DNA of 64,000 nucleotides. It comes from Verrucomicrobiia bacterium (GTDB lineage: Bacteria > Verrucomicrobiota > Verrucomicrobiia > Limisphaerales > UBA11358). Shown piece after piece: positions 20,509 to 53,853 of this stretch (position 1 is its first letter; each line of letters starts with the position of its first letter). The notes beneath the pieces are model-generated. The model was not told the origin of the DNA. It made no database searches and worked only from the letters and a program-made list of their open reading frames with translations. The DNA lies in NCBI GenBank assembly GCA_035577265.1, contig DATLVR010000095.1:819-64818 (forward strand). The letters are read 5' to 3'. A program made the translations under genes and the position numbers.

Positions 20509-21801
20509 TCACCGACTCCGTGGCCACTCGTCTGTCCGGAATGGCACGGCCGGCAGATCGGCCTCAAAGCGCACGGCCACGCGTTTGCCAACAGCCTCCG
20601 GCGAGCTGTTCACGGGCCAGGAGCGGAGCGCTCCGGACGTTCGTTCTGATTTCAATTTTTCTCCTTGATCCACTCCGGTGTTCTTTGGGCTGGAATTGGA
20701 AACGGCCGATGCGTTCGGAGGCACGACTTGCAGCATCACCACCGAACTGCTGCAGGACCAGGAATAAAGCAATCCCTCAGGAGTCGGGTGATTCCAACGC
20801 GACCAAGAAAGATTGTCTGACGTCCGGCGATTTTCCCAGGCGATGTCGGCATTGTTCTGCAACCAGGACTGGTATCTGGATTGAAGGCCACGCGCCTTCA
20901 TGAACCGCGCGAGCCAGCGGGCGCAAATGCCATTGAAACCTCCGGCATCTCCTGATTCCTTATAACCCGGCAGGATTCCTCCCCGGCACAGTTCATTCTT
21001 CGTGTAATCGGCCGCCAAAATCGCTTCATTCGTGTGCCCCAGGAAATTCGCCATGCCGATAAACGTCCCCTGATTGTAGCTAAACGATCTTTCATCTTTG
21101 TCGCCGTTGGATTCAATATTGTCGTAAACCTGGCCGGTGCTGGCATCGAACAAGGCCGAGCGCTCCCAGCGATAAAGGTTCTCCGCCTTCGTCAAATAAT
21201 TGGTGTCGCCGCCGGCCTGATACAACAGATACGCCGCAATGGCGGCGGGGCAGTTCACACAGGAATTCTTGGTGAGATTCGAAATCTTCCACCATAATCC
21301 GCCGCCCAGGTTGGTGGACCAGGCCCGCGCAAAACAAAGGTCGAAATTCTCTTTGGCAACATCACGATAGCCGGTGTTCCCGGTGAGCTGGTGGGCACGG
21401 GCACAGGCGATCACCATCCACATGATGTCGTCATTGAATTCGTTGCCCATCCAGTTGGTGCCGTGATCGGCCACGAACCCCTGGTAGATGCGATTAAACA
21501 TCAACAGGCAATCGGTGTTCGTCGTGCGTTCGTAAACATCCAAAACCATCTCCATCTGCTCGGCCCGGTCCCAGAACCGGGTCTTCCCTCCCACCGTGGT
21601 GGCGCGATAGTAGCCCTTGTCCCCCTCCATGAAATAAAACGCATCGTTGTAACTTTTGAAAATCGCATCCGCGTCGGCGACACTGAACGCGCGCACCGGG
21701 CATGCCGTCATGCCCGCAATCGCGAAACAGGCAGCCATGCAAAGCATCGCTCGCATCCTGCACACATCACTCCGGAATAATTTTATCATCGCTGAATTCA
21801 T
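20509..21801 (-). CDS. Secreted GH76 alpha-1,6-mannanase-like enzyme (stand-alone)
   Basis: GH76 motifs: FWDRAEQMEMVLDVYE, NEFNDDIMWMVIACARAHQLTGNTGYRDVAKENF, GGGLWWKISNLTKNSCVNCPAAIAAYLLYQ, YNQGTFIG. The last ~75 aa are charged and unrelated to the paralog at 50167..53853. Confidence 0.85.
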   Translation of the reverse strand: MNSAMIKLFRSDVCRMRAMLCMAACFAIAGMTACPVRAFSVADADAIFKSYNDAFYFMEGDKGYYRATTVGGKTRFWDRAEQMEMVLDVYERTTNTDCLLMFNRIYQGFVADHGTNWMGNEFNDDIMWMVIACARAHQLTGNTGYRDVAKENFDLCFARAWSTNLGGGLWWKISNLTKNSCVNCPAAIAAYLLYQAGGDTNYLTKAENLYRWERSALFDASTGQVYDNIESNGDKDERSFSYNQGTFIGMANFLGHTNEAILAADYTKNELCRGGILPGYKESGDAGGFNGICARWLARFMKARGLQSRYQSWLQNNADIAWENRRTSDNLSWSRWNHPTPEGLLYSWSCSSSVVMLQVVPPNASAVSNSSPKNTGVDQGEKLKSERTSGALRSWPVNSSPEAVGKRVAVRFEADLPAVPFRTDEWPRSR

Positions 21802-35677: not shown

Positions 35678-38611
35678 TTACTCAGCGAGCACACGGAAGA
35701 ACTGGCGCGGTTCCGTTGGCGTCACGACAAACGGAGAACTCGCCGCAGCGTTCGTCGTCCATGGACCGGCAAGATTGGCCGCTTGCAGCAACTTGCCCGA
35801 ACCCGCCCAAGTCAGAGTCAGTTGCGCGCCATCCCAACTGGATACCAGCATCGGACTCACAGGCGGTCCCACGATCAAGCTGCCTGATGCGTTGGTGACC
35901 GCGGCACCCGGTTGAGCGAGCCAGGTCGCCGGGAAATTCGCCGGGTAAGCGGCGTTCAATTGCGCAAATGAGTATTGGCCCGGGGCCAACGACACTCCGC
36001 CGATTGTCACCGCACGGAAACGATGGTCTCGCGTCAGATTCAATCGCCCGTTCAAAATCAGGCCACCCTGCGGGTTATTGATCGCGTAAGTCGTCTGCAA
36101 AGCACCAGCCGCGTCAACGGTGATGGTGTTTGTCCCCAACGCATTCATCCCCGAACCCACCAGTGTGCCGCGCACCACGTGCCAGGTTCCGGAATAAGCG
36201 TTGTTTGTTCCGGAAATGTTCAGGCTGCAAACCCACGTTGGCTGAAACGTGCTGCCGCTGTAACCACGATATTCAACATTCCCATTTCCGGTCAGTTGAG
36301 CAGCCACCTGAATGGAGCCGCCGCTGCCGGAGTTGCTCGCGCTGATCGGCGTGTTCGCGACCACCTCCATCGCGCCGCCGATCACCGCATTGCCCGCATT
36401 GTTGATGCCGTTGCCGATCGAGCCGCCGTTCATCATCAGGTGAGGAAAATTTACGGTGCTGGGATTGGCGCCTTTGAGAATGATGGCTCCCAACGAAACG
36501 CCGTTGCCGCTCACCGTCAATAAACTTCCCGGAAAGGTGGCTATGGAACTCGTCGCCGGCGTGCGCATGCCCGCACCGGGAAGGATCTCAAACGTGCTGC
36601 CCGGATATCCCGCTGCGGTGGTGGATGCCGGCTGGCCGTTGTTCCAATAGCTGCCCGTGTCCCAATCCACCGCCGGCGAAACATTGGGCTGCACCGAGGA
36701 CATCGTGATGTATTGCGGAGGTCCCAGACTAGGCGTCACGGTCAACTTCGCCACGACGCTGGTTACGGAACCGTAGTTGTCTGAAACCACAGCCACATAA
36801 TTCGTCGAATCCGTGGAAGCGAGATTGTTGATCGTGAGTGACGCCGTTTGCGCGCCGGAAATTCTGCCGTTGTCCGAAAGATTGGAGTAAAGACCGTTTG
36901 ACTGGACCCGCCATTGATAGCTCAACGGCTGGTTCCCCCACGCCGCCACCGTAAAGGTCGTCGCCTGATAGACGAACTGCGTCCTGTTGGTGGGTTGGGT
37001 TGTGATCAGCAACGGCTCCGGCTGTTGCGTGGGAAGAATTGTGAGGTCATTGGCAAACGCCAGTGTCCGCATACCCATGCCGTAAAGTGTGGTCGCCGGC
37101 GTGTTGCTGCCGGGCATATAGACGTGGTCGAACGTGATGCCGTTGATGGATGCGCCGCTGCTGAGACCTTTGATAAAGCCGCCGGTGGTGCCCACATCCC
37201 GCACGGTGATGTTCTTCACCAGGATATTTGAAACCGGCCCGCCGCCATCCCCCAGGCCATTTTGAATCAGGAACACCGCCCAGGCACCATGACCGTCATT
37301 GACGTAGGAAACACGCTCCACGTCGATATTTTCAAATGTCACATGGTTGACGATGGACGCGCCGTTTTTGTGATCGATGCAAATCGCCCCGGCGCAGTTG
37401 TAGGCAACGCTATTTTTGAAAGTGATGCCATCCTGAACCTGTTGCACGCCCTGCCCGACTTTGAAGGCGTAACAAATCGTCCACGCGAGGCAGTTGTCGA
37501 AAACAAGGTCGCTGTTTTTCATGTTGGCACCCGGCCACGGAATGCTGGTGTAGGTTTTGGTGGAAAACGGATCGTCAAGCCCGATGGCGACCACGTTGGA
37601 TACGCTGACATGCTGCGAACAATTCACGTCAATGCCGTCGGAGTTCCCCACGGAAAGCTTGTTCAGAATCTTGAGGTTGTTGAACGTGACGTTCACCGCA
37701 ATGCACGGAATGATGGCCCAGCCGCCCGAATCTCTGAACGTGACACCATCGGCGGTGAAGTTGGTGCAATTGATCGGCATCAGCGTGTTGACCGCGAAAT
37801 TTTTGGTGTAAACCATGTAATCGCCATTTGCGTCCACCGTTCCCCGGCCGTAGATCTTCATGTTCGCGCCATTGGTGGTGTAAAGAAACCAGGTGCCGCT
37901 GGACAACGGGCCAAAGGTCTGATTGGTCTGATAATCGGCGGGATTGCCCGTGCAACGGATCACCGATCCGCCCTGCAGATAGAGCGCCATGTTGCTTTTG
38001 AGCTTGAGGTTGCCAGACAAATACAAACCCGCTGGCACAAATACGATGCCCTGCCCATTCGCGGTGCCATACACGCTCGCATCATTGATGGCATTTTGAA
38101 TCGCCGCGGTCGTGATGGCTGATCCAGTGTTGTTCGCATTGTAGGGCGCGTTGGTGACGTTGAAAATCCCGGCACCCGATGAAGCGGGCACATCCGTTTC
38201 CGCCGCATCCGCGCAAATGACCAGCCGCTTCAGGCTGTTGATCTGCACGATGAGATACTGGTTCGTCGCGAGCGTGAAGGTGAGTTTATTTCCCGAAATG
38301 ACGCCGGTGATGTTCAACTTCTTTGGGCTGATGCCGTAGGACGTGACGCTGGCCTGGGTGAGCGCGGTGACTTCAAATGTCACCGCACCGTTGGACAGGG
38401 AGAGCTGCGCATAATCATAATCGCCGGTATAACCCACCACCGGAACATTCGTGCCGTTCACCTTGAGCGAATAGACCGATGATACCGGATATATCGAAGG
38501 CTGCGGATAAACCTGAACACTCGCGTCCGCATAACCCAATTGAGCGTGGGCCAAAAGCAGCACGAGAAGGAGAGCGACACAGGCAAATGAGCGATTGGGG
38601 TGAGACTTCAT
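35678..38611 (-). CDS. Secreted GH28 (polygalacturonase-family beta-helix) enzyme + Ig-like domain + shared C-terminal PATR module
   Basis: GH28 motifs: FNVTNAPYNANNTGSAITTAAIQNAINDA, GIVFVPAGLYLSGNLKLKSN, NSDGIDVNCSQHVSVSN and GLDDPFSTKT (NxDG / G.DD pattern). Ig-like domain at ~36734-37015 (PLSYQWRVQSNGLYSNL). It ends PRQFFRVLAE. Confidence 0.8.
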   Translation of the reverse strand: MKSHPNRSFACVALLLVLLLAHAQLGYADASVQVYPQPSIYPVSSVYSLKVNGTNVPVVGYTGDYDYAQLSLSNGAVTFEVTALTQASVTSYGISPKKLNITGVISGNKLTFTLATNQYLIVQINSLKRLVICADAAETDVPASSGAGIFNVTNAPYNANNTGSAITTAAIQNAINDASVYGTANGQGIVFVPAGLYLSGNLKLKSNMALYLQGGSVIRCTGNPADYQTNQTFGPLSSGTWFLYTTNGANMKIYGRGTVDANGDYMVYTKNFAVNTLMPINCTNFTADGVTFRDSGGWAIIPCIAVNVTFNNLKILNKLSVGNSDGIDVNCSQHVSVSNVVAIGLDDPFSTKTYTSIPWPGANMKNSDLVFDNCLAWTICYAFKVGQGVQQVQDGITFKNSVAYNCAGAICIDHKNGASIVNHVTFENIDVERVSYVNDGHGAWAVFLIQNGLGDGGGPVSNILVKNITVRDVGTTGGFIKGLSSGASINGITFDHVYMPGSNTPATTLYGMGMRTLAFANDLTILPTQQPEPLLITTQPTNRTQFVYQATTFTVAAWGNQPLSYQWRVQSNGLYSNLSDNGRISGAQTASLTINNLASTDSTNYVAVVSDNYGSVTSVVAKLTVTPSLGPPQYITMSSVQPNVSPAVDWDTGSYWNNGQPASTTAAGYPGSTFEILPGAGMRTPATSSIATFPGSLLTVSGNGVSLGAIILKGANPSTVNFPHLMMNGGSIGNGINNAGNAVIGGAMEVVANTPISASNSGSGGSIQVAAQLTGNGNVEYRGYSGSTFQPTWVCSLNISGTNNAYSGTWHVVRGTLVGSGMNALGTNTITVDAAGALQTTYAINNPQGGLILNGRLNLTRDHRFRAVTIGGVSLAPGQYSFAQLNAAYPANFPATWLAQPGAAVTNASGSLIVGPPVSPMLVSSWDGAQLTLTWAGSGKLLQAANLAGPWTTNAAASSPFVVTPTEPRQFFRVLAE

Positions 38612-40722: not shown

Positions 40723-43248
40723 TTACGGGTAAGTTAACCTGTAAAAAACGCTCCCATCGCCCGGCGAAATTGGAACAGTCATCGAGTTGGTGATATCGGC
40801 ACCGGAAACTTCAGACCAGTTCGCGCCCAGACCAGCGCCGGGAGCGTTCGTTTGAACCCACAATCGCCAGCCGGTATGCGTCGCCGGCCAGGACAGGGCG
40901 AGCGAGTTGCCCGCCGTTGGTTGCGCCGTGATGTTGGTTGGCACGGTGGAGACGCCGTAGAACTGAATTTCGGACACGTTACAACTTCCATTCGGCGGCG
41001 AAACATATCGCAGATAGCGGAACACGGCATGATTCGTGAGGGTGATGGTGGTGAACAAGCCTTCTGGTGGAGCATATCCGACAACGTGCAACGTGACCGC
41101 ATCACTGAAGTCCGCCATGTTCGCCGCTTCGAATACGCCCGTCACCATGCGCGGAGACCAATTGGCGCGCGGACAATAGCGGAGCGTCGTCACCGCCATA
41201 GGGTTCCCGGCACCAAGATCCAGTCCGACCCAGGCGCCGCTCGTCGTTGGCGCATCGAAATAGGTGACGAGGCTGCCATCAAATGCTTTCTCCTTCGTGT
41301 TACCCCCGTTGCCAAATGATCCACTGGTGCCAATGATGGTGCCGCTCAAAAGCTGGCTTGGGCTGACCGTCAACGGCGGCTCCTGGAAAAACCGCGCGAC
41401 AAAACCGGAGCCGCCCGTGTTGGTAATGGTCACGAACAATACACTGCCGCGCGTCACGGTGGTGTGTTCCAAGCTGGTGCTGGATTCGCGGATGATCTGC
41501 GCCTGATACGTCGTGTTGGAATTCAGGAAGGTCAGCGGCACTACCCAACCTTGCGTGACACCCGTGTTCATGATTCCAATGAACCATTCATTGCCCTTGC
41601 GCCGGGCGGTGGCGACGGTCGTGCCCAGCTGACTCTGTGATAAAACCATGGTTTCATCCCACATGCTGGGAATCGCGCGGATCACCGGGGCAAACGGACT
41701 TTTGGCGATGGTATCCGACCGCTCGGCGTATGTAATGATCGGCCCGGGCATGTTGATCGGATTGGCGATTTCGTAAGCCGACTGACTGCCCAATAACATC
41801 GGCGTGAAATCAGCCGGACCGGCGAGGAAACGCGTGAATGGAACAGGCATCGTGGCGGCAGAACTCAGGAATTGTTCCTTGCCGAACACCGCCTCGACTT
41901 CAATCAGATTCGGCCAGGTGCGGAATTGTCCCGTGGGTTTTGTCGATCCATGAAAATTTGCGACCAGATGATAGGCGGCCGCATCACGCAAAATGTCTTC
42001 CTCCAATTTGACCCGCTCTTTCGCCGAGGCATTGACACCACTGAAGTCGAAGAAGTCCGCCTTGAATCCATCCACGCCATACGTCTGCAACAGCTGGAAA
42101 AAATTTGTGCGCTGTGAAAACGTGTTTAACTCGGACGAAGTTTTCCAAAGCAGCACCTTCACCCCGGCGGCATGGGAAAAATTGACGACCTGCTGCACCT
42201 GTGGCCAGGGATTGCCGTCGTTCCAGGACGACCAGCCGGAATCCACCGTGTTGTATTCAAATCCCAGCCGGGCGGCCCACAAGGAATTCGTCATCGCGTT
42301 GGTCCAGGTGATGCCACCGGGTTGCGGGCGCAGCCAATCCCAAACCGACCGCCCTGTCGTCGCCCAGGATGTCGCCGTGCCTTCAGGAAACAGGACCGGA
42401 TCAGGTGGCGGTGCGAGACTTTCCACAATGTCATTATTCACGATCATGTTGAGGTTTGAGCCAACCATGATGACGTTCCACGGTGTGCTGACTGCGCCGG
42501 CCACGGACACGCCGGTGCCGCCGCCCTGGTTGACTGGATAGGTCACTTGAAATTTTCGCCCGGTCGGGTCCGCGATTTTGGTCAGATACGGACTGCCGAA
42601 CACTCCCAAGGTGGACTCCGTGAGCGCGACAAATCCATTCGCTCCCGGAAGCTGAACCGTCACCGGCGGACCCATCGCCGTGTTGGTTGCCATCGCAGTG
42701 ATGCTCATGCCGCTGTAAACACCCTCGTAAACCGAAGTGCCATTCTGTGACCAGACCGTGCTGCTGTCCGGAATGACAAAGCTGCTGGATTCCGCCGTGA
42801 TATTTTTCGTCGCCGAGTTGGTGAATTCGTAGCGGAACGCCACCCCGTTGCCATATGCACGGACATTGAGAAAGCCGGTCAAACCCGACGCCGCATGATT
42901 CAAGGTGATGAGCTGAGCCTGAAATTGGTCCACACCGGTCGCGTGGATCCCGTGGCGTGACGGAAATATTCCATTCGTCGAGTAGGCGGTCGCACCGGCG
43001 ATGGTCACCCCTGAGCCTAGATTGGTGCCGTTGACCGTAACGCCAAGTGATGACGCTTCAATCACCGGCACTCCGCGATACGTCACGGAATAATTTAAAT
43101 TCCCTGAGGTCGTTTGAACGGTCGCTACGACCGCCCCGTCCGGTCCGGTGACGGTAACCGCCGACGCGCACGCGTTGCCCAGCATCAGCAAGCCCGCCAG
43201 CAACAAGGCCCGCAACGCATTCCGCCTTTGAAAATCACGCCCGCTCAC
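40723..43248 (-). CDS. Secreted GH97 glycosidase + discoidin (F5/8 type C, CBM32-like) domain + conserved C-terminal domain
   Basis: GH97 motifs: LNVRAYGNGVAFRYEF, YNTVDSGWSSW, YGVDGFKADFFD, NFHGSTKPTGQFRTWPNLIEVEAVFGKE. Discoidin-like part: KEKAFDGSLVTYFDAPTTSGAWVGLDLG. The tail ends GSVFYRLTYP. The GTG start overlaps the aguA stop (GTGA). Confidence 0.85.
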   Translation of the reverse strand: MSGRDFQRRNALRALLLAGLLMLGNACASAVTVTGPDGAVVATVQTTSGNLNYSVTYRGVPVIEASSLGVTVNGTNLGSGVTIAGATAYSTNGIFPSRHGIHATGVDQFQAQLITLNHAASGLTGFLNVRAYGNGVAFRYEFTNSATKNITAESSSFVIPDSSTVWSQNGTSVYEGVYSGMSITAMATNTAMGPPVTVQLPGANGFVALTESTLGVFGSPYLTKIADPTGRKFQVTYPVNQGGGTGVSVAGAVSTPWNVIMVGSNLNMIVNNDIVESLAPPPDPVLFPEGTATSWATTGRSVWDWLRPQPGGITWTNAMTNSLWAARLGFEYNTVDSGWSSWNDGNPWPQVQQVVNFSHAAGVKVLLWKTSSELNTFSQRTNFFQLLQTYGVDGFKADFFDFSGVNASAKERVKLEEDILRDAAAYHLVANFHGSTKPTGQFRTWPNLIEVEAVFGKEQFLSSAATMPVPFTRFLAGPADFTPMLLGSQSAYEIANPINMPGPIITYAERSDTIAKSPFAPVIRAIPSMWDETMVLSQSQLGTTVATARRKGNEWFIGIMNTGVTQGWVVPLTFLNSNTTYQAQIIRESSTSLEHTTVTRGSVLFVTITNTGGSGFVARFFQEPPLTVSPSQLLSGTIIGTSGSFGNGGNTKEKAFDGSLVTYFDAPTTSGAWVGLDLGAGNPMAVTTLRYCPRANWSPRMVTGVFEAANMADFSDAVTLHVVGYAPPEGLFTTITLTNHAVFRYLRYVSPPNGSCNVSEIQFYGVSTVPTNITAQPTAGNSLALSWPATHTGWRLWVQTNAPGAGLGANWSEVSGADITNSMTVPISPGDGSVFYRLTYP

Positions 43249-45398
43249 GACGGCTCCTTGTGCATGGCCAGATGGTCGGGCAAGGGCTTGTTATTCACGG
43301 ACTGAAAATAACGCAGGCAGGTATCCCGCCAGTTGACCGCGTGAGCCAGCTGGGTCGCGAGTTTTTTTTGCACGGCCTCAAACCGCTCCGCGTCCACCCT
43401 GCCCCGCAGCGTTTCCCACTGCACCTGCATCGTCTTCACATACTCGACGCCGGCATTGTAACGAGCACACAGTTCATCCCACACCGTGCGCCCATCCGAC
43501 AATTTGTAATCCCAGTCAACATGATGGAACCACAACAGCAGGTCAGGCGGACAGGTGTTCAGGTTGGAAAAATAATCTCCCACTGGTGGTGCATACTGGG
43601 CAACCGCATCGGAGCCACTGGCGGTGCGGTCGAACCCTATGCCCCGCGCATCGGCCTGGTGATAATACCACCCCGAATATTCCGGGGATTTGTTATTGTG
43701 CGTTTGCGGTGCTGGATCATAGTGTCCGCCGCCTTCCATGATATGATGCAGCCCCAGCGGCATCTCGTAATCCACGCACCCCTCCCACGAGCCGAGCATC
43801 ATGTTGGTGATGGTGGCGATCACCTTGGGATCGTTGCTCCAGGTCATTTTGCCCCATTCCTCCGCGATCTGCGCCGCGCTCAACCGGCTGTTCCAGGCCA
43901 GCCGGCCAAACGCATACCAATTGGCCTGGGCGAAATCATGGCCGCACCAGTTGCGATCCTGTCCGGTGTTCGCCACGCCGGCGATGGCGGTGTGGGCCGA
44001 AGCGGCAAACGTTTTCGCCACGGTTGAACCCGGACCGTCAGCGTGCGTGTCCGATTCCAAAAATTCCTGCCACATGGGCGCCAGAAATACCAGGTCAGTG
44101 GCGTGCCCCATGTTCTCCTGCGTGATCTCCAGTTCCGCCATCAAGGATGTTTTGTGCATCGCACCAAACAACGGATGAAACGGTTCGTGCGGCTGGAAAT
44201 CAATCGGGCCGGTTTTCACCTGGACAAAAACATTGTCGCCAAATTTTCCGTCCAGCGGTTTGAATTCCGTGTAGGCGCGTTTGGCGCGATCCGGGTCCAC
44301 CTTCGGACTGTTGTAAACGAAAGCCCGCCACATCACCACGCCACCATGCGGCGCGAGGGCATCGGCCAGCAGGTTTGCCCCGTCCGCATGCGTGAGGCCG
44401 TAATCCTGCGGGCCGGGCTGGCCTTCGGAATTGGCCTTCACCAGAAAACCGCCGAAGTCCGGGATGAGCGCATAAATTTCATCCGCTTTTTGCCGCCACC
44501 ATTTGCGAACCGCCGGATCTTTGGGATTGGCCGTCTTCAATCCACCCAGCTTTTTTGGCGAAGCGAAATTCACCGAAAGATAAACACGGATGCCATAGGG
44601 CCGGAACACCTCCGCCAGCGCCGCCGCCTTCTTGAGATTTTCCGTGCTCAATTGCTCCGGCCGGGCGTTGACATTGTTTAACACCGCACCATTCAACCCG
44701 AGCGAGGCATCCGCCCTGGCGTAATCCTGATAACGCGGCTCCAGTTTTCCCGGCAGTTCGGCCCATTGCCACAGGGATCTCCCGGCAAATCCGCGCTCCA
44801 CGCTGCCGTTCAAATTGTCCCAATGATTCAACAGCCTACGCTCCAGCGCGGGCTTCTCGGCGATGGCCAGGTGATCAATGGCCTGACGAGTCTGGAGCAA
44901 CCGCAAAAAATGAAATGTTCCGTAGAGCGCCCCGGTCTCACCCTGCGACGCGATCACAGTCAGGGCACGACCGGAATTGGTCACCGACCGGATGAGATAT
45001 CCGTCGTTGCCAAGCTGCTTGAGTTCGGCATCCCATCCCACTGCAGCAACCGCCGGGTTATTGGCGGGAGTTCCAATCACCAGCGCGCCGCTGCGGGTAA
45101 CGGCCTGCGAACATTGCCGATTGCCACCCAGTAATCCCGACAATCCGTCTTTAATTTCATCCCGGATCACCTGCTGCGTTGGCGAATTGGTCGCCACCAC
45201 AATTTCAGTGATGTGCGTCAAATACGCTTCCCGCTGCACGCGATTGGTGACAGGTTCGTATCGCAGCCACAGCCGGTAACCATCCTCGGCCTGAAGCGGC
45301 AAGGCAAACAACAGCACCAGCAAAAATGCGCCCAGATAAAATCTGCTGCCGGGACTTTGGGACCGGCGGGAACTAATTTGATCGATCGCGCTGGTCAT
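43245..45398 (-). CDS. aguA: GH67 alpha-glucuronidase
   Basis: EDGYRLWLRYEPV at the mature N-terminus, RRLLNHWDNLNGSVERGFAGRSLW and other GH67-typical blocks, at the expected ~700-aa length. Its ATG overlaps the upstream stop (ATGA). Confidence 0.85.
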   Translation of the reverse strand: MTSAIDQISSRRSQSPGSRFYLGAFLLVLLFALPLQAEDGYRLWLRYEPVTNRVQREAYLTHITEIVVATNSPTQQVIRDEIKDGLSGLLGGNRQCSQAVTRSGALVIGTPANNPAVAAVGWDAELKQLGNDGYLIRSVTNSGRALTVIASQGETGALYGTFHFLRLLQTRQAIDHLAIAEKPALERRLLNHWDNLNGSVERGFAGRSLWQWAELPGKLEPRYQDYARADASLGLNGAVLNNVNARPEQLSTENLKKAAALAEVFRPYGIRVYLSVNFASPKKLGGLKTANPKDPAVRKWWRQKADEIYALIPDFGGFLVKANSEGQPGPQDYGLTHADGANLLADALAPHGGVVMWRAFVYNSPKVDPDRAKRAYTEFKPLDGKFGDNVFVQVKTGPIDFQPHEPFHPLFGAMHKTSLMAELEITQENMGHATDLVFLAPMWQEFLESDTHADGPGSTVAKTFAASAHTAIAGVANTGQDRNWCGHDFAQANWYAFGRLAWNSRLSAAQIAEEWGKMTWSNDPKVIATITNMMLGSWEGCVDYEMPLGLHHIMEGGGHYDPAPQTHNNKSPEYSGWYYHQADARGIGFDRTASGSDAVAQYAPPVGDYFSNLNTCPPDLLLWFHHVDWDYKLSDGRTVWDELCARYNAGVEYVKTMQVQWETLRGRVDAERFEAVQKKLATQLAHAVNWRDTCLRYFQSVNNKPLPDHLAMHKEPS

Positions 45399-48300
45399 GG
45401 ATATGTGAGCCGGAAAAAAGTGCCTCCTTCGGTCAGATCAACCGGCAAGATTATTGCGTTCGTCACGTCCGAACCCGCAACGTCCACCCAGTTCGTGGCC
45501 AAACCCGCAGTCAGACTATTTGTCTGAGTTTGCAACCGCCACCCGATGTGATCTTCCGGCCAGGAGAGGGTCAGTGAATTGTTCGCGACCGCCACCCATA
45601 GGTTCGTTGGATTGGTTGCAACGACGCGTAACAACGCAATCGTTCCATCAACCGCGAGCTTGTTGGTCCACGTCAACGCTGAATCAACAACCGGCAGATT
45701 GACGGTGGTGAACCCGGCGACCGGCATGTTGAATAATTGGAAGCTGTCGCCCGCCTGAAGCGCGGGACCGAGATTGTTCACTGTCAATATGCCGCCGCCC
45801 GTGATGGTTCCGGTGGTCGAAATCAATTTGTCGTTCGGCTGTGCGTTGGTGCGATTCAGTTCTACGACGACAGTTCCGGCGAGAGTGATATTGCTCTGTA
45901 CTACGAGCGTTCCAACGGTATCGCCGGGATTGATGATGGAACCGCCCACGGCATTCAACTTGCCAAGCAAAGTTCCACTGCCGCGAAGAGTCTTACCGCT
46001 GTTCAAGGTCAATGTCCGGTCCGTGCGCCCCGTCACATCCAACACCGCTGTGTTGGAGATGATGATTTGCGCGCTGCTGGCAATGTTGCCGGGTTCAACC
46101 AACGCCAGCGTGCCGGCACCGATGGTCGTGTTGCCGGCGTAGGTGTTCGCTTTTGATAAGGTGAGCCTGCCGGCACCGAGTTTGCTCAAACCGCCGGCAC
46201 CATTCGCCAGCACCTGCGCGATGGTGATATTGAAATTCGCCGTGTCGAACATGACGCCGCCAGGATTCACCGTGGCTGTAGTGAGATTGGTGATGAAGCT
46301 TATGCTGTTCGCGCCCGCGATGAATTTTACGCCGTTCAAATTCAATATGCTGGTGCCGGTGCCGCCGGCGATGCCCGAGCCAGTTGTCGTGATCTTCAAC
46401 GTGCCGCCGTTCAAGTTCAGTGTTCCCGCCGACTGCGTGGTTGCGCCGAGCAAAATGGCCGTGCTGTTATCCGTGGAGGCGACGACGCTCGTGCCGTCGA
46501 GATTCGTGATGGTTAGAACACCCGTCGCCGTGCCCACGCCGCCGCCGAGCAGATTTCTGCCGAGCACAACGACACTGCCCGCGCGGCTGATGTCGAGGTG
46601 ATTGGCAGAACTGTTTCCCAGAATCAACGCACCGACCTGCCCGCCGCCACCGGTGTTGTTGATCGTGCCAATCGTCAAGCTGCTTAAATTGCCGACGAAC
46701 GTCCCGGCGGAAAAATTGTTGCTCGACATAAAGGTCGTTCCCGTGCCGAGCTGACCGAGCGCGGCGGAGTTGCCGATGCTCAAGGCGGTGCGGCTTCCAG
46801 TTGAACCAACGTTGAAGACCGCGCCGCTGCCGCAGGTGAAAGTTGGATTGCACTTCCGTGCGCCCAGAATCAGCGTCGGCGTCAGGATGGTGGTGATTCC
46901 ATTGGGCGCAGTGGTCAAAACCGCCTGTGAGCTTGCAGCATTAAAGGCGCTGGCGGCGTCGCCAATGGTTATGGATGTCGAGGCGGTGATAGTATTGTTC
47001 GTGCCGAGATTCAATGTGCCGGTCCACGGGAAATTACCACCGGGGTTCTGTGCATTAACGCCAACCTGAATGGAGCCAACGTTCACCGTAAAATTGGACG
47101 AGGCGGAAACGTCCAGCGTGCCGAACGAAGCCGCGCCAAAATTTCCAGCGGCAATGGAAATGGAATCGCTGGAACCGCTGCCAATGCTTACCGATGTGTT
47201 GGCTGGAACGACCACACTGCCATTCGTCATCGGCGAACTGCTGTTGTTGAGAGCGATGTTCAGGCTGGCCACGGAAGAATTACCCGCGAGCGTCTGCGTG
47301 CCGCTACCGGTTTTGTTCAAGATCAAAGGCCGGGCGCTACTGGAAACCAGCTTGCCGGAAAAACTTCCACTACTATTGCCACTCCCTACGGTCAGACTCA
47401 CTGAATTAGACGACCCATTTGTGATAACGCCACCGGTTCCCAACAGCGCGCCAATGATCTGACTCGTTCCGTTCAAATCAACCAAGCCGAAGCCGTGCGC
47501 CGCGTTGTTGCTGATGGCCAAAAATGCGCCGGAGCCGAGCGTGCCGGAGCCGGAAAGCTGCACTGTGTCCGCTGCATTGAGCACTGTGCCGTTGGTGTAG
47601 GTATTCGCTCCGGTGAGCAGCAAGGTGCCACCGGTGATTCCACCCGGGGCATCCACCGTCAACGTGCCGCCACCACTGATCTGCGACGCCACGGTAAACA
47701 GGTTTGCCTGCGGGTCGAAGAGATTACCGGTGCCGATCAAGGAAACATATCCCGCCAACGTTTCCGGCAATCCGGACCAGTCGCTCACCACGCCGCCACC
47801 CAGAAACAACGCCGTGCCAGGTGCCGCACCAATGGTCGTCACATTGCCACTACCGGTTGCCTTGATGCGTAGAGCTCCGCCATTGGTGAGATATAATGCG
47901 CCACCTGCAAATATCTGATCGCCGCCGACCGCCGGCGTGCGCAAGTCCAGCCCGGAAACTTGATAGATGTTCGTCGCAGTAGGGGCCAAGGAGTTCGACC
48001 AATTCAACCCCGAGTTAAAGCTCGATACGCCGACAGCATCGCTGTTAGTCAGCGGAATGGTGACCGGATCAATCCATTGAAAATTATAGGTGGCATGAGC
48101 CGAAACACCATAGTCCATCCCCACGGCTTCCACTTCAATCGGCGTGAAGGCTTCATTGTTGCTGCGCGCGAGCTGGGAAATAAAAACGCCATTGTTCGGC
48201 GTGGCCCAAAGCCAGCTCAAACTGTTGTTAGGATTCCGGCGATAAACATTGTAGTAATAAACCGCGTCGGTGGAATTGCTCCAAGTCAGACGCAGGTTAT

Positions 48301-50050
48301 ATGTTTTCCAATCCAGATTGTATAATTTGTCCACCGCAACCGAAGCGGGCGCGGCTGGCGTGCTAATGGAGCCGTTGTAGACCGATAGCTGACCGACGCG
48401 CAGCGAGTAGCTACCGACCGTAGTAGCGTTGCCGATGCGCAGAGAAATCGTTGAAATCTTTTTTCCGGCGAACACAGATAAATCCAATGTGTTCGTGTTC
48501 CATCCAGTGGTAACGGTATTGCCGATGTCGAGAAACTGAAAATTTGTCGGGCTGTCTTCAAAGGCCAGTCCGAGTTTCAAATACGTCGCGCCAATCAAGC
48601 CGGTTTTGTAGATGCACCGAACATGGGTATTGTTGCTGACCGCAAGGCTGGTTTGATAAAGCCAGATGTCGTTGGTGGCGCTGGTAACTGTGCCAGCGAT
48701 CATCAAAGACGCGCCGCCGTAATACGCGTCAACAAAATCAATGCTCGGAACGAGCTTGGTGCCGGTGCTTTTCACCAGCCAGCGCCAGGTTGGCAAAACG
48801 TCCTGCAAGCCAAGGTTGTTCCAGCCGCCATTCATCAATTGCTGGCCGTTTATGTTGAAAAAACTCCCCTGCCCAGGATTGAAGCTTGTTGTGAAAGGCA
48901 CGCTGCTGATGGGTGACGCCGCCGGAATGAAATGCGATATACCCGGCCACGCATTGTTTGAGGAGGTGTTGCCCGGATCGCCGCCGGGTCCGACCCAGTA
49001 ATAATTGTCGCGCGCGTAGAAGTTCGTTACACTGGATGCGTAGTTAAAGGTCCATTCCGGCCGGTAGATGCCCAGCGAAACCAAGTGCGGCTGGCCTTCA
49101 GGAAAAAGATAATACCAGTCAATCCCGGTTGTAGTGTAGCCGCCGCTTTCCGTGTCAATGCCCGCATAAAGATCATAGGGACTGCGGCCAAGACTTTGCG
49201 CCAGCGAACGGGAGTTCGGCAGCTCTGTGGTGTCCCCATAATTGCTGCCCCACCAAAAATTCAAAAACATATTATCCGAGACCGGCCCGCTCACCCCTTG
49301 AAAAAACATCTGGTTGTAGCTGTCCAACTCATTCCGATAATCAATGCTGCCGTTTTTATCCATCGCGTCATACCAGACAATCTTCAGTCCGGGCGCCTTC
49401 GCGTGAAAATAGTTGATGAAATTGGTCATCGCCGACGCCGTTGCCGACGATCCGCCAACGGTCTCCTGATTGATAAACCAGCCATCGAAACCAAAATACT
49501 GCGCGGCCTGGATCAACTTGTCCGCCACCGGAAAGTTTGTGCCGGACTGCTGGAGAAAATCATTCACCCATTGAAATTTTCCGCCATAAACGGTTGGCGG
49601 GAAAAAGACGTTACCCATCATCATCACGCCGTTGCGGTGCGCTGCGTCAATCACGTGGCCGTTGGGCACGAGAAGAATGCCCGAACCTGCCGATCCGCCC
49701 CAATACACCATGGACTTCATGTATTGCCAGTAGTTGCCGGCGTAAAAACGGTTCGTGCGCGAGCCTTCGGCGGAACTGACCGGCGTGGAATTGAACGCCA
49801 CCAGCGACATTACGCCCGCTTCGTTGGTGCGGGCGTGAGGATTTACATTCAACGCGGGATTAACAAATCGCATCGCCAACGGAATGGTGCTTTTGTTGTA
49901 AAATGCGTCCGGGTCGTTCGTCGGATTCCAGTTTAGAATTGTTGCAGGATAAAATGATGGTGCGGCCGGCTCGCCCAGTTCCTGGGCTTTCACCGCAATT
50001 CCAAAGGGGACGCAAAGCATCGACAGGAACATCCAGGCAAATAGCTTCAT
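45395..50050 (-). CDS. Secreted GH85 endo-beta-N-acetylglucosaminidase head + FN3-like domain + ~885-aa PATR stalk + conserved C-terminal domain
   Basis: The likely start is MKLFAWMFLSMLCVPFGIAVKAQ (50050). The ORF track extends to 50437, but that part overlaps the upstream gene. GH85 motifs: MVYWGGSAGSGILLVPNGHVIDAAHRNGVMMMGNVFFPP and YFGFDGWFINQET. PATR repeat: GLSKLGAGRLTLSKANTYAGNTTIGAGTLAL. It ends GGTFFRLTYP. Confidence 0.85.
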   Translation of the reverse strand: MKLFAWMFLSMLCVPFGIAVKAQELGEPAAPSFYPATILNWNPTNDPDAFYNKSTIPLAMRFVNPALNVNPHARTNEAGVMSLVAFNSTPVSSAEGSRTNRFYAGNYWQYMKSMVYWGGSAGSGILLVPNGHVIDAAHRNGVMMMGNVFFPPTVYGGKFQWVNDFLQQSGTNFPVADKLIQAAQYFGFDGWFINQETVGGSSATASAMTNFINYFHAKAPGLKIVWYDAMDKNGSIDYRNELDSYNQMFFQGVSGPVSDNMFLNFWWGSNYGDTTELPNSRSLAQSLGRSPYDLYAGIDTESGGYTTTGIDWYYLFPEGQPHLVSLGIYRPEWTFNYASSVTNFYARDNYYWVGPGGDPGNTSSNNAWPGISHFIPAASPISSVPFTTSFNPGQGSFFNINGQQLMNGGWNNLGLQDVLPTWRWLVKSTGTKLVPSIDFVDAYYGGASLMIAGTVTSATNDIWLYQTSLAVSNNTHVRCIYKTGLIGATYLKLGLAFEDSPTNFQFLDIGNTVTTGWNTNTLDLSVFAGKKISTISLRIGNATTVGSYSLRVGQLSVYNGSISTPAAPASVAVDKLYNLDWKTYNLRLTWSNSTDAVYYYNVYRRNPNNSLSWLWATPNNGVFISQLARSNNEAFTPIEVEAVGMDYGVSAHATYNFQWIDPVTIPLTNSDAVGVSSFNSGLNWSNSLAPTATNIYQVSGLDLRTPAVGGDQIFAGGALYLTNGGALRIKATGSGNVTTIGAAPGTALFLGGGVVSDWSGLPETLAGYVSLIGTGNLFDPQANLFTVASQISGGGTLTVDAPGGITGGTLLLTGANTYTNGTVLNAADTVQLSGSGTLGSGAFLAISNNAAHGFGLVDLNGTSQIIGALLGTGGVITNGSSNSVSLTVGSGNSSGSFSGKLVSSSARPLILNKTGSGTQTLAGNSSVASLNIALNNSSSPMTNGSVVVPANTSVSIGSGSSDSISIAAGNFGAASFGTLDVSASSNFTVNVGSIQVGVNAQNPGGNFPWTGTLNLGTNNTITASTSITIGDAASAFNAASSQAVLTTAPNGITTILTPTLILGARKCNPTFTCGSGAVFNVGSTGSRTALSIGNSAALGQLGTGTTFMSSNNFSAGTFVGNLSSLTIGTINNTGGGGQVGALILGNSSANHLDISRAGSVVVLGRNLLGGGVGTATGVLTITNLDGTSVVASTDNSTAILLGATTQSAGTLNLNGGTLKITTTGSGIAGGTGTSILNLNGVKFIAGANSISFITNLTTATVNPGGVMFDTANFNITIAQVLANGAGGLSKLGAGRLTLSKANTYAGNTTIGAGTLALVEPGNIASSAQIIISNTAVLDVTGRTDRTLTLNSGKTLRGSGTLLGKLNAVGGSIINPGDTVGTLVVQSNITLAGTVVVELNRTNAQPNDKLISTTGTITGGGILTVNNLGPALQAGDSFQLFNMPVAGFTTVNLPVVDSALTWTNKLAVDGTIALLRVVATNPTNLWVAVANNSLTLSWPEDHIGWRLQTQTNSLTAGLATNWVDVAGSDVTNAIILPVDLTEGGTFFRLTYP

Positions 50051-50166
50051 GATCCGCTTGTCTGCTGGCAGGGGCCGATCCGCTGCCACCGACGAAGCTG
50101 TCAGAGTTCGCACGCTGGAGATTGCACGCTGTCGAAATGGTTTTCGCATACTCAGGGTCAAAACGT

Positions 50167-53100
50167 TCACGGGAAAACGAGCCGGAAAAAGACGCCGCCA
50201 TTGGCCGGATTGATGGGCATCGTCATCACGTTGGTCGCCGCAGCGCCGATCATATCCACCCAGTTCGCGCCCAGACCGGTCGCCAGCGCATTGGTCTGCA
50301 CCTCCAGTCGCCAGCCGATGTGATCGGCCGGCCAGGCCAGAGTCAATTGATTGCCTGCGCCGATTCCTGTCGCAATGACCGCTGCATTGGTTGACACCAC
50401 CCGGATGCTTCCGTCCATCGCCACGTTGTTTTGCCACACATTCCCGCCCGTTAATGCCGGCAGGTTCACCGTTGTGAATCCATCCACCGGCTGGTTAAAC
50501 AGATAAAACACATCTCCGCCCTGTAACGCCCCGCCAAGATTATTCACCGTCAAGGTTCCGCCTCCGCCAATGCTTCCAGAGATGGATACTAGTTTGTCGT
50601 TCAATGGAACATTGCCGCGGTTTATTTCCATCACCAACGTTCCTCCCAAGGTGATGTTGGTTTCCACGGCGAGCGTGCCGATGGTGTCACCCGGGTTGAT
50701 GGTCGATCCACTCAAGGCATTCAGCTCGCCCAGCAACGTCCCGCCACCGCGCAGCGACCGGCCGTTGTTGAGCGTCAAGGTCTGATCACTCCGCCCGGTC
50801 ACATCCAGAACTGCGGCGTTGGAAATTATGATGGACGCGCTGCTGGCAATGCTGCCCGGCTCGACCAATGCCAGCGTGCCCACACCAATCACGGTATCTC
50901 CGGCATAAGTGTTCGCCTTCGATAGCGTCAGCTTGCCCGCGCCGGACTTGCGCAACCCACCGCCACCATTGGCAAGCACTTGGGGAATGACCAGATTGAA
51001 ACCTGCCGTGTCGAACGCAACACCGCCGGCATTCACATTGACCGTGGTGACATTGGTGATGTAACCGGCGCTGCCGGCCCCGGCCTTGAGAGTGATTCCG
51101 TCCAGATTAACCGTGCTGGTTCCGGCACCGCCCGCGATGCCCGGCCCCGTCGTGGTGATCGTCAACGTGCCTCCGTTCAAGTTCAGTGTCCCCGCAGATT
51201 TGGCGGTGCCGCCCAGCAAAATCGCCGCGCCGTTGTCGGTCGAAACAACGACGCTTGATGAATCGAGATTGCTCAAGGTCAGGACGCCGACCGACTGACC
51301 TGATCCGCTGCCGCTCAAATATTGCCCGACGGTCACCACGGTTCCACTGCCGGCGAGATCAAGATGATTCGCAGCGTTGCCGCCCATGGTGAGAAGTCCG
51401 GTTTCATTCCCATTACCACCGTTGGCCAGTTGACCGAGCGCCAGTTTGCTGAGCCAGGCATTGAGGCGGCCGCCGGAACAATCGAGGTTCCCCGTGTAGT
51501 TGCCGCTGCCACCGCGCGATGATGCGGCGATGTTCAACGCGGTGCGATTGCCGTTGTTTCCCAGGTTCAACGTTGACCCCATTCCTAGCGTGAAGGTCGC
51601 ACTGGCTTTGCTGCCGCCCAGGGTCAGGCTCGGTGTCAGCATGGTCGTGCTGCCGTTGTCGGCGGTGGTGACGGATTGTGCGGTCGTGTTGAAGGTGTTC
51701 CCCATGTCGCCGAAGACAATTGAGGAAGCCGCATTGAGCGTGTTGTTCGTGCCGAGCTTCAGGGTCCCGAGAATGACAGGCGAGCCGCCGGAGGTATTGG
51801 TGCTGATGCCCAGCTGAATCGTGTTCACGTTCGCGGTGAAATTGGTGGACGCCGACACGTCCAACGTCGCGGTGATGGTGCCGGAATTGACATTGCCGGC
51901 CGACGCGATTGCCAGTTGATTGCTGATGGCCAGCAGCGCATTGGACACAACCAACGTGCCGCCGGAGACGATCAATCCGCCGTTGACATAATTGGTGTTC
52001 CGCGCGAAGGAAATGGTTCCAACTCCCGTCTTGACCAGTTCGATCCCGCCGGTGCCATTCCAAATGGATCCCTGAAAAATACCGCCGGCGGCATCGCCAT
52101 TGCCGATGGTCAGCGTGCTCAGATTGGTGTTGCCATTGTAGATTTTCCCGCCAATGCCGCTTAGATTGCCCACGCCCAGATCGAGTCCGTTGAGGTCGAC
52201 GGAGCCGTAGCCATTGCCAGCGCTGTTGCTGAAAGTGAGCGAACCGTTGGTATCACCCAGCGAGCCAGTGCCGCTGAGGCGAACGGTGTCCGCTGCATCA
52301 ATGATGGTCCCGCCCGTGTAGGTGTTGTATCCGGAAAAAATCAGCGTGCCGCCGCTTTGGATCGGGTTCGCCGCCTTTACCTTCAAAAATCCCGGGCCGC
52401 CGATGAATGCCGAGATCGTGAACGTGTTTCCCTGCGGATCAAATTTCCCCCCGCCGGCCCGCAACGTGACATTGCCATAGAAGGTGGCGCTGTTGTTCGC
52501 CCAGTCAGCGACCTCCCCGTTGTCCAGAAACAGATCTGTCCCCACCGAAATCCCCCGTCCGCCGCTCGTGTTCTTGCAGGCGAGTATGCCATTATTGGTC
52601 AACGTCAGCGAACTGCCCGCGAAATAATGGTGCAGCCCGTCCGGTGGGGTTCTCAATGTCAGTCCGTTGACAACATAATCGTGGGCTGAGGATGGCGCCG
52701 TGCCATCCGACCAGTTCAAGCCGCTCTCAAAGCTGCTGCTGCCCGTATCCGACGCGCTCAACGTCACCGTGGTCGGATTCACGGTCTGTGACGGGGGCAC
52801 GGCGATCATGGCCTCGAAGGAGGAGATGCAATCATACGAAAAGAAATTCGTGCCCTCGGGAGTCCGTTGCGGCCATTGACACCAGGAAAGGTTGTCTGAA
52901 GCCCGGCGGCCGTTCCACGCGGCGTTCGCCAGATTCTGCAACCAGACCTGGTAGCTGCTTTCCAGGCCGCGATGCTTCATGAATTTCGCCAGCCAGCGGA
53001 TGCAGATCGCGTTGAAGATGGAATTGTTCTGTGCGATGCCATACTGCGGCATGAAACCGGAACTGCCCATGTTGTTTTTGGTGTAGTTCGCGGCGAGAAT

Positions 53101-53853
53101 CGCGTCATTGGTCAGCCCGAGAAAATCCGCCGCGCCGATGAAAGTGCCCTGATTGTAAGTCGTCGGCACCTGACTCGACAGGCTGTCATAGACCTGGCCG
53201 TTGGCCGGGTTGAAAAAATTCGCTTTGCCCCAGGTATAAATATTGGTTGCCTTCGTCAGGTAAGCGGGATCACCCAGACACTGATAGAGCAGATAAGCTG
53301 CGATGGCTGCGGGAAAGTTAACGGCAGAATTCTTGGAATTGTTGGCGGTAGTCCAGAACATCCCCCCGATGGGTGGCACAACAGTTCCATTGGTGTCCCA
53401 ACCGCGTGCATAACACATATCGAAATTATTTTTGGCGATGTCCAGAAATGCAGGGTTACCGGTCTTGAGATATCCCCGGGCATACGCCATGCACGCCCAC
53501 ATGATGTCGTCGTTAAAGCTGTTCGAAGACCAGTTGGTGCCATTGTAACTTTTAAATCCGTTCAGCAGATTGGTGATCATCACCTGATACGTGGCGTTGG
53601 AAGTCCAATCGTGGGCGTCGATCACGCATTCGATCTCGTTGGCCAGCCACCAGAAATAGGTATAGTTCGCGTTGGCCTGATTCTCCCTGAAATAGCCGTT
53701 GGTGCCGCTGACCACATAAAACTTGTTGGTGTAGGCATTGACGATGGTCGCCACGTCGTTGCTGTAAAAGGCAGACGCCTTGAATCCGCACAGCAAAATC
53801 GTGAGACAAAGCAGCCGAATCCAAACTGACTTCAACTGAATCATTTTTGCCAT
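50167..53853 (-). CDS. Secreted GH76 alpha-1,6-mannanase head + ~860-aa PATR stalk + conserved C-terminal domain
   Basis: GH76 motifs: NSFNDDIMWACMAYARGYLKTGNPAFLDIAKNNF, GGMFWTTANNSKNSAVNFPAAIAAYLLYQ, YNQGTFIG. The stalk is collinear with that of 45395..50050. It ends GGVFFRLVFP. Confidence 0.85.
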   Translation of the reverse strand: MAKMIQLKSVWIRLLCLTILLCGFKASAFYSNDVATIVNAYTNKFYVVSGTNGYFRENQANANYTYFWWLANEIECVIDAHDWTSNATYQVMITNLLNGFKSYNGTNWSSNSFNDDIMWACMAYARGYLKTGNPAFLDIAKNNFDMCYARGWDTNGTVVPPIGGMFWTTANNSKNSAVNFPAAIAAYLLYQCLGDPAYLTKATNIYTWGKANFFNPANGQVYDSLSSQVPTTYNQGTFIGAADFLGLTNDAILAANYTKNNMGSSGFMPQYGIAQNNSIFNAICIRWLAKFMKHRGLESSYQVWLQNLANAAWNGRRASDNLSWCQWPQRTPEGTNFFSYDCISSFEAMIAVPPSQTVNPTTVTLSASDTGSSSFESGLNWSDGTAPSSAHDYVVNGLTLRTPPDGLHHYFAGSSLTLTNNGILACKNTSGGRGISVGTDLFLDNGEVADWANNSATFYGNVTLRAGGGKFDPQGNTFTISAFIGGPGFLKVKAANPIQSGGTLIFSGYNTYTGGTIIDAADTVRLSGTGSLGDTNGSLTFSNSAGNGYGSVDLNGLDLGVGNLSGIGGKIYNGNTNLSTLTIGNGDAAGGIFQGSIWNGTGGIELVKTGVGTISFARNTNYVNGGLIVSGGTLVVSNALLAISNQLAIASAGNVNSGTITATLDVSASTNFTANVNTIQLGISTNTSGGSPVILGTLKLGTNNTLNAASSIVFGDMGNTFNTTAQSVTTADNGSTTMLTPSLTLGGSKASATFTLGMGSTLNLGNNGNRTALNIAASSRGGSGNYTGNLDCSGGRLNAWLSKLALGQLANGGNGNETGLLTMGGNAANHLDLAGSGTVVTVGQYLSGSGSGQSVGVLTLSNLDSSSVVVSTDNGAAILLGGTAKSAGTLNLNGGTLTITTTGPGIAGGAGTSTVNLDGITLKAGAGSAGYITNVTTVNVNAGGVAFDTAGFNLVIPQVLANGGGGLRKSGAGKLTLSKANTYAGDTVIGVGTLALVEPGSIASSASIIISNAAVLDVTGRSDQTLTLNNGRSLRGGGTLLGELNALSGSTINPGDTIGTLAVETNITLGGTLVMEINRGNVPLNDKLVSISGSIGGGGTLTVNNLGGALQGGDVFYLFNQPVDGFTTVNLPALTGGNVWQNNVAMDGSIRVVSTNAAVIATGIGAGNQLTLAWPADHIGWRLEVQTNALATGLGANWVDMIGAAATNVMTMPINPANGGVFFRLVFP

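Follow-up and report, generated by a model that had tools for sequence, protein, structure and literature searches.

Introduction

How do environmental Verrucomicrobiota place glycan-degrading enzymes outside the cell? The question is raised by two adjacent genes in the stretch of DNA analysed here, a window of 64,000 nucleotides (positions 819 to 64,818 of contig DATLVR010000095.1, assembly GCA_035577265.1) from a Pedosphaera-like soil bacterium of the Verrucomicrobiia whose genome assembly comprises 6.18 Mb and is 94% complete. Verrucomicrobiota of soils and fresh waters play a major part in polysaccharide degradation, and they are without the SusC/D-lipoprotein system of Bacteroidota. In the window, unrelated heads of glycoside hydrolase families 76 (GH76) and 85 (GH85) are each followed by a common, collinear C-terminal region of ~865 aa, comprising a long PATR-type stalk and a small tail domain. 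An earlier reading of this DNA, referred to below as the original prediction, had explained the pair by recent duplication of a whole stalk-anchor cassette with exchange of the catalytic head. We find instead that the two stalks are old paralogues, homologous end to end, and that stalk and tail together form a concrete candidate for a verrucomicrobial display module, borne by the counterparts of Bacteroides surface enzymes and reshuffled among GH76, GH85, GH28, GH5, esterase and Kelch heads. Our literature search returned nothing specific on PATR-stalk glycosidases in Verrucomicrobia.

Two unrelated enzymes on a collinear stalk

The two genes and their parts are laid out as follows.

50167..53853, minus strand: GH76-stalk gene, 1228 aa, an open reading frame (ORF) with Pfam GH76 and PATR matches, encoding from N to C terminus a signal peptide, the GH76 head, the beta-solenoid stalk and a C-terminal domain (CTD)
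52780..53769, minus strand: GH76 head, aa ~29-358, joined to the stalk without a linker
50392..52779, minus strand: GH76 stalk, predicted beta-solenoid of ~795 aa, protein aa 359-1154
50866-50955, minus strand: PATR match (Pfam), aa 967-996 of the GH76 protein
50170..50391, minus strand: CTD of the GH76 protein, FN3-like, ~74 aa, ending VFFRLVFP
50051..50166, minus strand: spacer of 116 nt from the GH76 stop to the probable start of GH85
45395..50050, minus strand: GH85-stalk gene, 1551 aa from the ATG at 50050
48071..49981, minus strand: GH85 head, three-domain endo-beta-N-acetylglucosaminidase (ENGase) of the Endo-A type, with no linker to the stalk
45620..48070, minus strand: GH85 stalk, predicted beta-solenoid, collinear with the GH76 stalk by BLASTP and identity profile
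46100-46189, minus strand: PATR match (Pfam), aa 1417-1446 of the GH85 ORF
45398..45619, minus strand: CTD of the GH85 protein, ending TFFRLTYP

BLASTP of the GH76 against the GH85 protein returns one collinear high-scoring segment pair (E=0, 50% identity, 955 columns), and alignment of the stalks over ~870 aligned residues gives 53.6% identity with 32 gap columns. Identity is 40-55% over the first ~500 residues (about 46% for residues 1-520) with a dip to ~20% near 250-325, rises to 62-84% between ~520 and ~790 (61-74% for residues 520-790) and is ~50% in the last 75 residues. The homology begins at (N/D)P.T(V/I).L(S/T).SD..G.SSF.SGLNWS (nt ~52779 and ~48070), ~15 residues before SSF(N/E)SGLNWS and 4-6 codons upstream of where the original prediction had begun the stalks; the consensus string that it quoted comes from the most conserved stretch (62-84% identity). 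Both proteins belong to the PATR family by profile, scoring 34.1 and 40.3 bits with PF12951 (cutoff 27) and 33.1 and 33.6 bits with TIGR02601 (cutoff 19.85). The likeness of the stalks is not generic to that family, because the first 520 residues match the partner gene only (phmmer 3e-95; no other ORF of the genome at E<1e-5). In single-sequence phmmer searches of the genome the next 270 residues match 17 ORFs and the last 74 match 26, and other PATR proteins of the genome match the last 200-390 aa only, at 33-45% identity. Similarity confined to short PATR-consensus repeats, which the original prediction had named as the outcome that would undo it, is thus rejected, and its observation of collinearity stands; its description of the stalks as highly similar near-duplicates does not, at 54% protein and 48-74% DNA identity.

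Both heads look like complete, catalytically competent enzymes, because each matches a solved homologue and keeps its signature motif. Pfam GH76 (PF03663) matches residues 35-336 of the GH76 protein (1.3e-28, 101 bits against a cutoff of 25.9), and the alignment to Bacillus circulans Aman6 (5m77; phmmer E 7e-38) extends to residue 355 and sets FNDDIMW against NPFNDDIMW, the NDD motif containing the catalytic Asp-Asp pair (D124/D125 in BcGH76). In the GH85 protein, Pfam GH85 (PF03644) matches residues 223-526 (2.4e-74, 251 bits) and GH85_C residues 700-788 (49.6 bits); Arthrobacter Endo-A (2vtf/3fhq) aligns over chain residues 11-608 of 626 (phmmer E 5e-132), and the N-x-E motif is kept as GWFINQE, corresponding to the catalytic residues N171/E173 of Endo-A. 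Profile, solved member and Asp-Asp pair together place the first head in GH76, with an activity predicted from sequence, and profile, N-x-E motif and ancillary beta-sandwich domains place the second in GH85; the heads are unrelated, as had been claimed. A second GH76 protein without a stalk (20509..21801, 430 aa) is 46% identical to the stalked GH76 head and ends at the same VPP boundary.

The stalks as old paralogues

The DNA of the two stalks has diverged extensively. No exact match of at least 20 nt exists between the two stalk genes, and their four-fold degenerate sites agree at 0.14-0.45, compared with 0.32 expected from composition. Nei-Gojobori estimates give 1.75 synonymous substitutions per site (dS), which is saturated, and 0.41 nonsynonymous substitutions per site (dN); by segment, dS is 1.89 for residues 1-520 and 1.56 for the remainder, where dN is 0.27. 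Between the window genes and their orthologues, dS is 0.14-0.20 for a 96%-identical relative (L038) with a gene order identical to that of the window, and 1.0-1.5 for a Pedosphaera sp. metagenome-assembled genome (MAG; L049) in which GH85 adjoins GH76 in reversed order. With four-fold sites at chance level, no common 20-mer and dS of 1.56-1.89, recent duplication of, or gene conversion between, the two window genes is rejected.

A search with the GH76 stalk among 5.8 billion proteins recovered relatives of both genes in Verrucomicrobiae/Pedosphaera MAGs, with GH76-stalk orthologues (P0003-P0007) at 63-69% identity and GH85-stalk orthologues (P0009-P0013) at 50-55% identity to that query. Two further loci (L039/L040) have the order GH125-GH97-GH76(970 aa)-GH2-GH85. 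Because each gene has orthologues in other Pedosphaera-like MAGs, within the same mannan/N-glycan locus, the duplication must be old, and by this comparison it dates back at least to the divergence of these MAG lineages. One locus (L050, 6118-16410) reads GH97-GH76stalk-GH67-GH97 and lacks a GH85-stalk gene between GH76 and GH67, which implies gain or loss of the GH85 gene at exactly that junction.

Modularity and recombination within the stalk

Segment trees of 17 full-length stalks, nine of them with GH76 heads, show that different parts of the stalk have different histories. Residues 1-250 sort by head, with all nine GH76 stalks on one side (support 94) and the GH85 and Kelch stalks on the other, Kelch nested inside GH85. 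The next segment, residues 250-520, strongly rejects such sorting (p-AU 4e-6 for GH85; 7e-59 for GH76); here a GH85 protein (P0011) bears a GH76-type segment, and two GH76 proteins (P0014, P0015) bear a GH85/Kelch-type segment. Across residues 1-520 the window's GH76 and GH85 stalks fall in two different old lineages. The tree of the C-terminal third, which has weak support, shows no sorting by head and rejects a single GH76 group (p 0.04). These trees place detectable breakpoints within the stalk, around residue 250 and in its C-terminal third, as well as at the stalk start, where the original prediction had expected a single breakpoint at the head/stalk junction. Often the moving unit is a head together with its first ~250 stalk residues, which sets breakpoints inside the helix. 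The cleanest swap at the junction itself is that of Kelch for GH85, as Kelch-repeat heads sit on a full-length stalk (P0016/P0017; 100% coverage, 48% identity). The gene for the Kelch-headed protein P0016 (L041:3028-7125) lies amid methyltransferase and housekeeping genes.

The survey for further heads that the original prediction had proposed was productive beyond the full-length Kelch case. A HMMER scan of the first 520 stalk residues against 1.84 billion cluster representatives gave 26 matches at E<=1e-30 and 148 at E<=1e-10. The N-terminal part of the stalk, its first ~340 residues, occurs behind GH28 heads (P0141, P0146, P0155, P0156), behind GH5 with Big_7 (P0137), behind a SASA-type esterase (P0129), behind LamG with I-set (P0128, P0148) and behind further heads without assignment; other PATR-plus-tail proteins of this genome bear GH27-like and BNR heads. 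Within this narrow stalk family, heads have been re-paired with stalk parts several times; the notion that carbohydrate-active heads share a modular stalk finds support in general terms, and the pattern is widespread in the clade. Of the modular display system in the original prediction, the modularity thus holds as an old property, and the surface display is put forward as a model below. As an evolutionary event, the pair in the window is ordinary, old domain shuffling.

The C-terminal part of the stalk has a more complex record. In segment M (residues 520-700), within-genome paralogues are 69-74% identical, compared with 62% for cross-genome GH76 orthologues, and in the tail of L049 the corresponding values are 69% and 51-57%. 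The GH85 stalk also contains a mosaic tract.

45530..45920, minus strand: mosaic tract spanning ~400 nt of the GH85 stalk, in its 3' part, seen by comparison with L038

Identity to L038 is 40-80% within the tract and 97-100% in its flanks, and no donor was found in this genome or in the retrieved relatives' loci, where the best match is 70-72%. Together these features suggest occasional recombination in the C-terminal stalk region; dS between the window genes is saturated, and nothing recent has therefore passed between them in this part.

Two explanations of how the pair came to its present state have to be set beside old paralogy. Recent duplication of the whole cassette, followed by a head exchange at the head/stalk junction, is suggested by the adjacency and end-to-end collinearity of the genes and by the gain or loss of a gene at the position between GH76 and GH67 in L050. 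It conflicts with the saturated dS, the 48-74% DNA identity and the lack of a common 20-mer, with the orthologues and conserved synteny of both genes in genomes at dS 1.0-1.5, and with the grouping of residues 250-520 of the GH85 stalk with Kelch and some GH76 stalks rather than with its neighbour. We consider this history, which the dS value and the phylogeny refute, very improbable. More serious is the proposal that occasional gene conversion or recombination between paralogues, besides purifying selection, maintains the likeness of residues ~520-864 within a genome. It would account for paralogues being closer than cross-genome GH76 orthologues in segment M and in the L049 tail, for a C-terminal tree that is not sorted by head and rejects a single GH76 group, and for a 400-nt tract that separates two 96%-identical strains. 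However, dS between the window genes is still 1.56 here, which leaves no recent tract; dN/dS is lower in the C-terminal part, as simple constraint predicts; in segment M the GH85 orthologues reach 88% identity, more than the paralogues do; and the weakly supported tree does not reject a single GH85 group (p 0.07). We regard such homogenization as a real possibility that falls somewhat short of an even chance.

Gene layout and export signals

The maximal ORF of the GH85 gene (45395..50437, from a GTG at 50437) would overlap the GH76 gene by 271 nt. The ATG at 50050 is the probable start because a near-identical relative (P0010) begins MQLFAWMFL; an in-frame ATG at 50149 is a second candidate. 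A search of the 116-nt spacer found no promoter-like and no terminator-like site, the GH85 stop overlaps the start of the following GH67 gene by 4 nt, and the GH76-stalk and GH85-stalk genes are probably co-transcribed. A Sec-type signal peptide, judged by eye, is present at the N terminus of both stalked proteins. Neither belongs to the PEP-CTERM class, as PF07589 has no match in either protein and both end in a folded domain (...FFRL..P); PF07589 does occur in some more distant relatives of the stalk (P0054, P0086).

Predicted structure of the stalk

An AlphaFold2 model of the 864-aa GH76 stalk, computed from a 48-sequence alignment, is all beta with a pLDDT of 92.5 and a pTM of 0.82, and consists of one long beta-solenoid followed by an FN3-like domain, in agreement with the long beta-helix that the original prediction expected. 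At about 20-25 residues per 4.8-Angstrom turn, a solenoid of roughly 800 residues would form a rod of an estimated 15-19 nm. The top Foldseek matches in the PDB are the autotransporter passengers EspP, EspC, Ag43, Hbp, Hap, Ssp and IcsA, with probabilities up to 0.97 and low TM scores (0.13-0.21), such scores being usual for long curved rods. Foldseek also matches the stalk to the beta-helix of the carbohydrate-binding module (CBM) CBM89, 7jvi (probability 0.98, TMt 0.30, 14% identity). By sequence, the stalk has no match among PDB chains save three marginal ones to serine protease (E 0.006). A lectin-like or CBM domain inserted in the middle of the stalk was also considered; residues 255-510, where conservation is lowest and strands are unusually long, again form a solenoid when modelled on their own (pLDDT 89.9), and because this model gives weak beta-helix matches only, no such insertion is seen.

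The stalk therefore has the long beta-helix fold of a type Va autotransporter passenger, but the translocator barrel of that class is absent, and we reject the class assignment. PF03797, the autotransporter barrel, has no match in either protein or anywhere in the 94%-complete genome, in a search in which E. coli and other controls were positive; the genome is without PF03797 despite encoding dozens of PATR proteins. As modelled, the stalked proteins are passenger-like in shape but not autotransporters.

The C-terminal tail domain

In place of a barrel, both proteins end in the tail domain, with the consensus ...LTLSWP...GWRLQ.QTN.L...NW.DV.GS...N.......SVFYRL..P and the end pattern (F/Y)(F/Y)R(L/V)..P. 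Foldseek assigns the last ~79 residues of the model to FN3 domains (TENCON 4lpw, TMt 0.47, probability 0.96), and the domain has no match in Pfam or NCBIfam even at E<=10. A conservative iterated search places it no more than 5 residues from the C terminus in at least 63 ORFs of the genome, of which 53 have a signal-peptide-like N terminus by a crude check, and a looser iteration extends it to up to 178 ORFs. Across the phylum its distribution is patchy (19 of 151 sampled genomes). Within the window it is carried by the stalked GH76 and GH85 proteins, a GH28 protein, two out of three GH97 proteins and a giant, non-catalytic PATR/LamG/Ig protein, and it is not found on the small GH76, GH125, GH67, GH2, the two GH27 proteins or the FAD oxidoreductase. 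Two further sites in the window are:

40726-40950: tail domain
27396-27620: tail domain

Tails of the FYR/FFR type also occur without a long PATR stalk, in a GH97 protein with an esterase (2194-6054), a GH28 protein with an Ig domain (35678-38611) and a GH97 protein with a discoidin domain (40723-43248). Cargo of the type IX secretion system (T9SS) ends in a beta-sandwich of ~80 aa that matches the CTD profiles; the tail here is a ~75-aa beta-sandwich at the extreme C terminus, without a match in Pfam or NCBIfam. A search for T9SS machinery by SprA_N had no match in the genome, but the controls gave none either. The tail domain is a more interesting lead than the pair itself.

Locus and proposed function

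The stalked pair lies in a mannan/N-glycan locus with GH125, GH97 and GH2 as neighbours, and, with an Aman6-like GH76 and an Endo-A-like GH85 in this setting, a common substrate class for the two enzymes is plausible, as the original prediction held. In the yeast-mannan and high-mannose N-glycan systems of Bacteroides thetaiotaomicron, the endo-alpha-1,6-mannanases BT2623 and BT3792 and the ENGase BT3987 are cell-surface enzymes, and a second GH76 set and the GH125 enzymes are periplasmic (PMC4978465). Because it is the counterparts of those surface enzymes that bear stalk and tail here, we favour a display model. In this model the stalked GH76 and GH85 proteins would be exported by Sec; the rigid solenoid would act as a spacer, keeping the endo-acting enzymes at a distance from the cell; and the tail domain would serve in outer-membrane passage, surface retention or both. 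The stalked enzymes would then make the first cuts in fungal mannoprotein, and the enzymes of the locus without stalks (the 430-aa GH76, GH125, one GH97, GH2 and GH27) would finish degradation in the periplasm. By analogy with BT2631/BT3782 of B. thetaiotaomicron, the stalk-less GH76 (20509-21801) is a candidate periplasmic partner. Taken as a whole, from Sec export through the solenoid spacer to a tail for passage or retention, we judge this functional model probable; for the display step by itself, with its surface location, our confidence is lower, a little under even.

Several observations weigh against this model. No anchoring or export machine was identified, and the location of the proteins is inferred. 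The tail belongs to no curated family, and its profile hits in the PDB are marginal only (CBM32-like E 0.002, FN3 0.03). The tail is also found on two of the three GH97 proteins in the window, GH97 being normally counted as exo-acting, which blurs a rule of endo-acting enzymes outside and exo-acting ones inside. The relative with a Kelch head sits outside any carbohydrate-active enzyme (CAZyme) locus. Lastly, the beta-helix of a CAZyme can serve as a carbohydrate-binding module rather than a spacer (PMC8810776; Amuc0953 preprint).

This last point opens a different account of the stalk, as mainly a very large carbohydrate-binding beta-helix that docks the enzymes on mannan or mannoprotein, in the manner of CBM89 or the Amuc0953 helix. 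The Foldseek match to 7jvi is in keeping with such a role; a GH10 xylanase (PMC8810776) and a verrucomicrobial sulfatase are documented cases of enzymes with a beta-helix CBM; the CBM of Aman6 comes after the GH76 domain, at the place where the stalk begins here; and the co-segregation of stalk residues 1-250 with head type is as expected of a joint function. Yet homologous stalk parts stand behind heads of differing substrates (GH28 pectinase-like, GH5, SASA esterase, Kelch), the stalk of ~795 aa is far longer than any known CBM (~420 aa for 7jvi), and its best-conserved part is the C-terminal third, which is common to many non-enzymatic PATR giants. The Akkermansia preprint supports both ideas at once, since it describes a cell-bound sulfatase with a T9SS-like CTD whose beta-helix binds mucin (bioRxiv 10.1101/2025.09.11.675649). 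Binding as the main role of the stalk therefore seems to us unlikely though worth keeping in view; carbohydrate binding and surface anchoring are in any case compatible, not exclusive.

The display model also admits a broader and more speculative extension, in which the PATR solenoid and FN3-like tail would mark a dedicated route of outer-membrane export and surface attachment, without a barrel, in Pedosphaera-like Verrucomicrobiota, analogous in function to T9SS CTD sorting. We think this extension improbable on present grounds. If true, the route would serve at least 63 proteins of this genome, with endo-glycosidases like this pair among those displayed, and stalk recombination would be the means of adding new enzymes to it.

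Comparison with known systems

The mannan and N-glycan polysaccharide utilization loci of B. thetaiotaomicron are a close functional counterpart, as they too combine an endo-alpha-1,6-mannanase, an ENGase, a second small GH76, a GH125 exo-alpha-1,6-mannosidase and GH97 in one locus. Their enzymes, however, are lipoproteins that operate with SusC/D, and their ENGase is of family GH18. Here, the ENGase is a GH85 and the enzymes carry a ~795-aa solenoid and a tail, with no lipobox; no SusC- or SusD-like Pfam match was found in the 22 large window ORFs scanned, a set that excludes the ORF at 60306-63998.

CBM89 (7jvi, PMC8810776) and Amuc0953 share with the stalked pair a non-catalytic parallel beta-helix appended to a carbohydrate-active enzyme, and Amuc0953 is in addition verrucomicrobial, with a small C-terminal beta-sandwich domain and cell-bound activity. 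Those proteins have an N-terminal or a shorter helix, shown by experiment to bind, whereas here the predicted helix lies C-terminal to the enzyme and is twice as long.

The closest likeness in shape is to the SPATE-type and other type Va passengers (EspP 3sze, EspC 9mne, Hbp 1wxr, Hap 3syj, Ag43 7koh), in which an N-terminal enzyme head is likewise mounted on a long right-handed beta-helix with PATR-type repeats. The heads there are proteases and here glycosidases, the host here is an environmental Verrucomicrobium, and in place of the C-terminal 12-stranded translocator barrel stands an FN3-like domain of 75 aa. The enzyme-on-beta-helix design is familiar from autotransporters, and the architecture described here is a variant of it, without the barrel and with an uncurated tail domain at its end.

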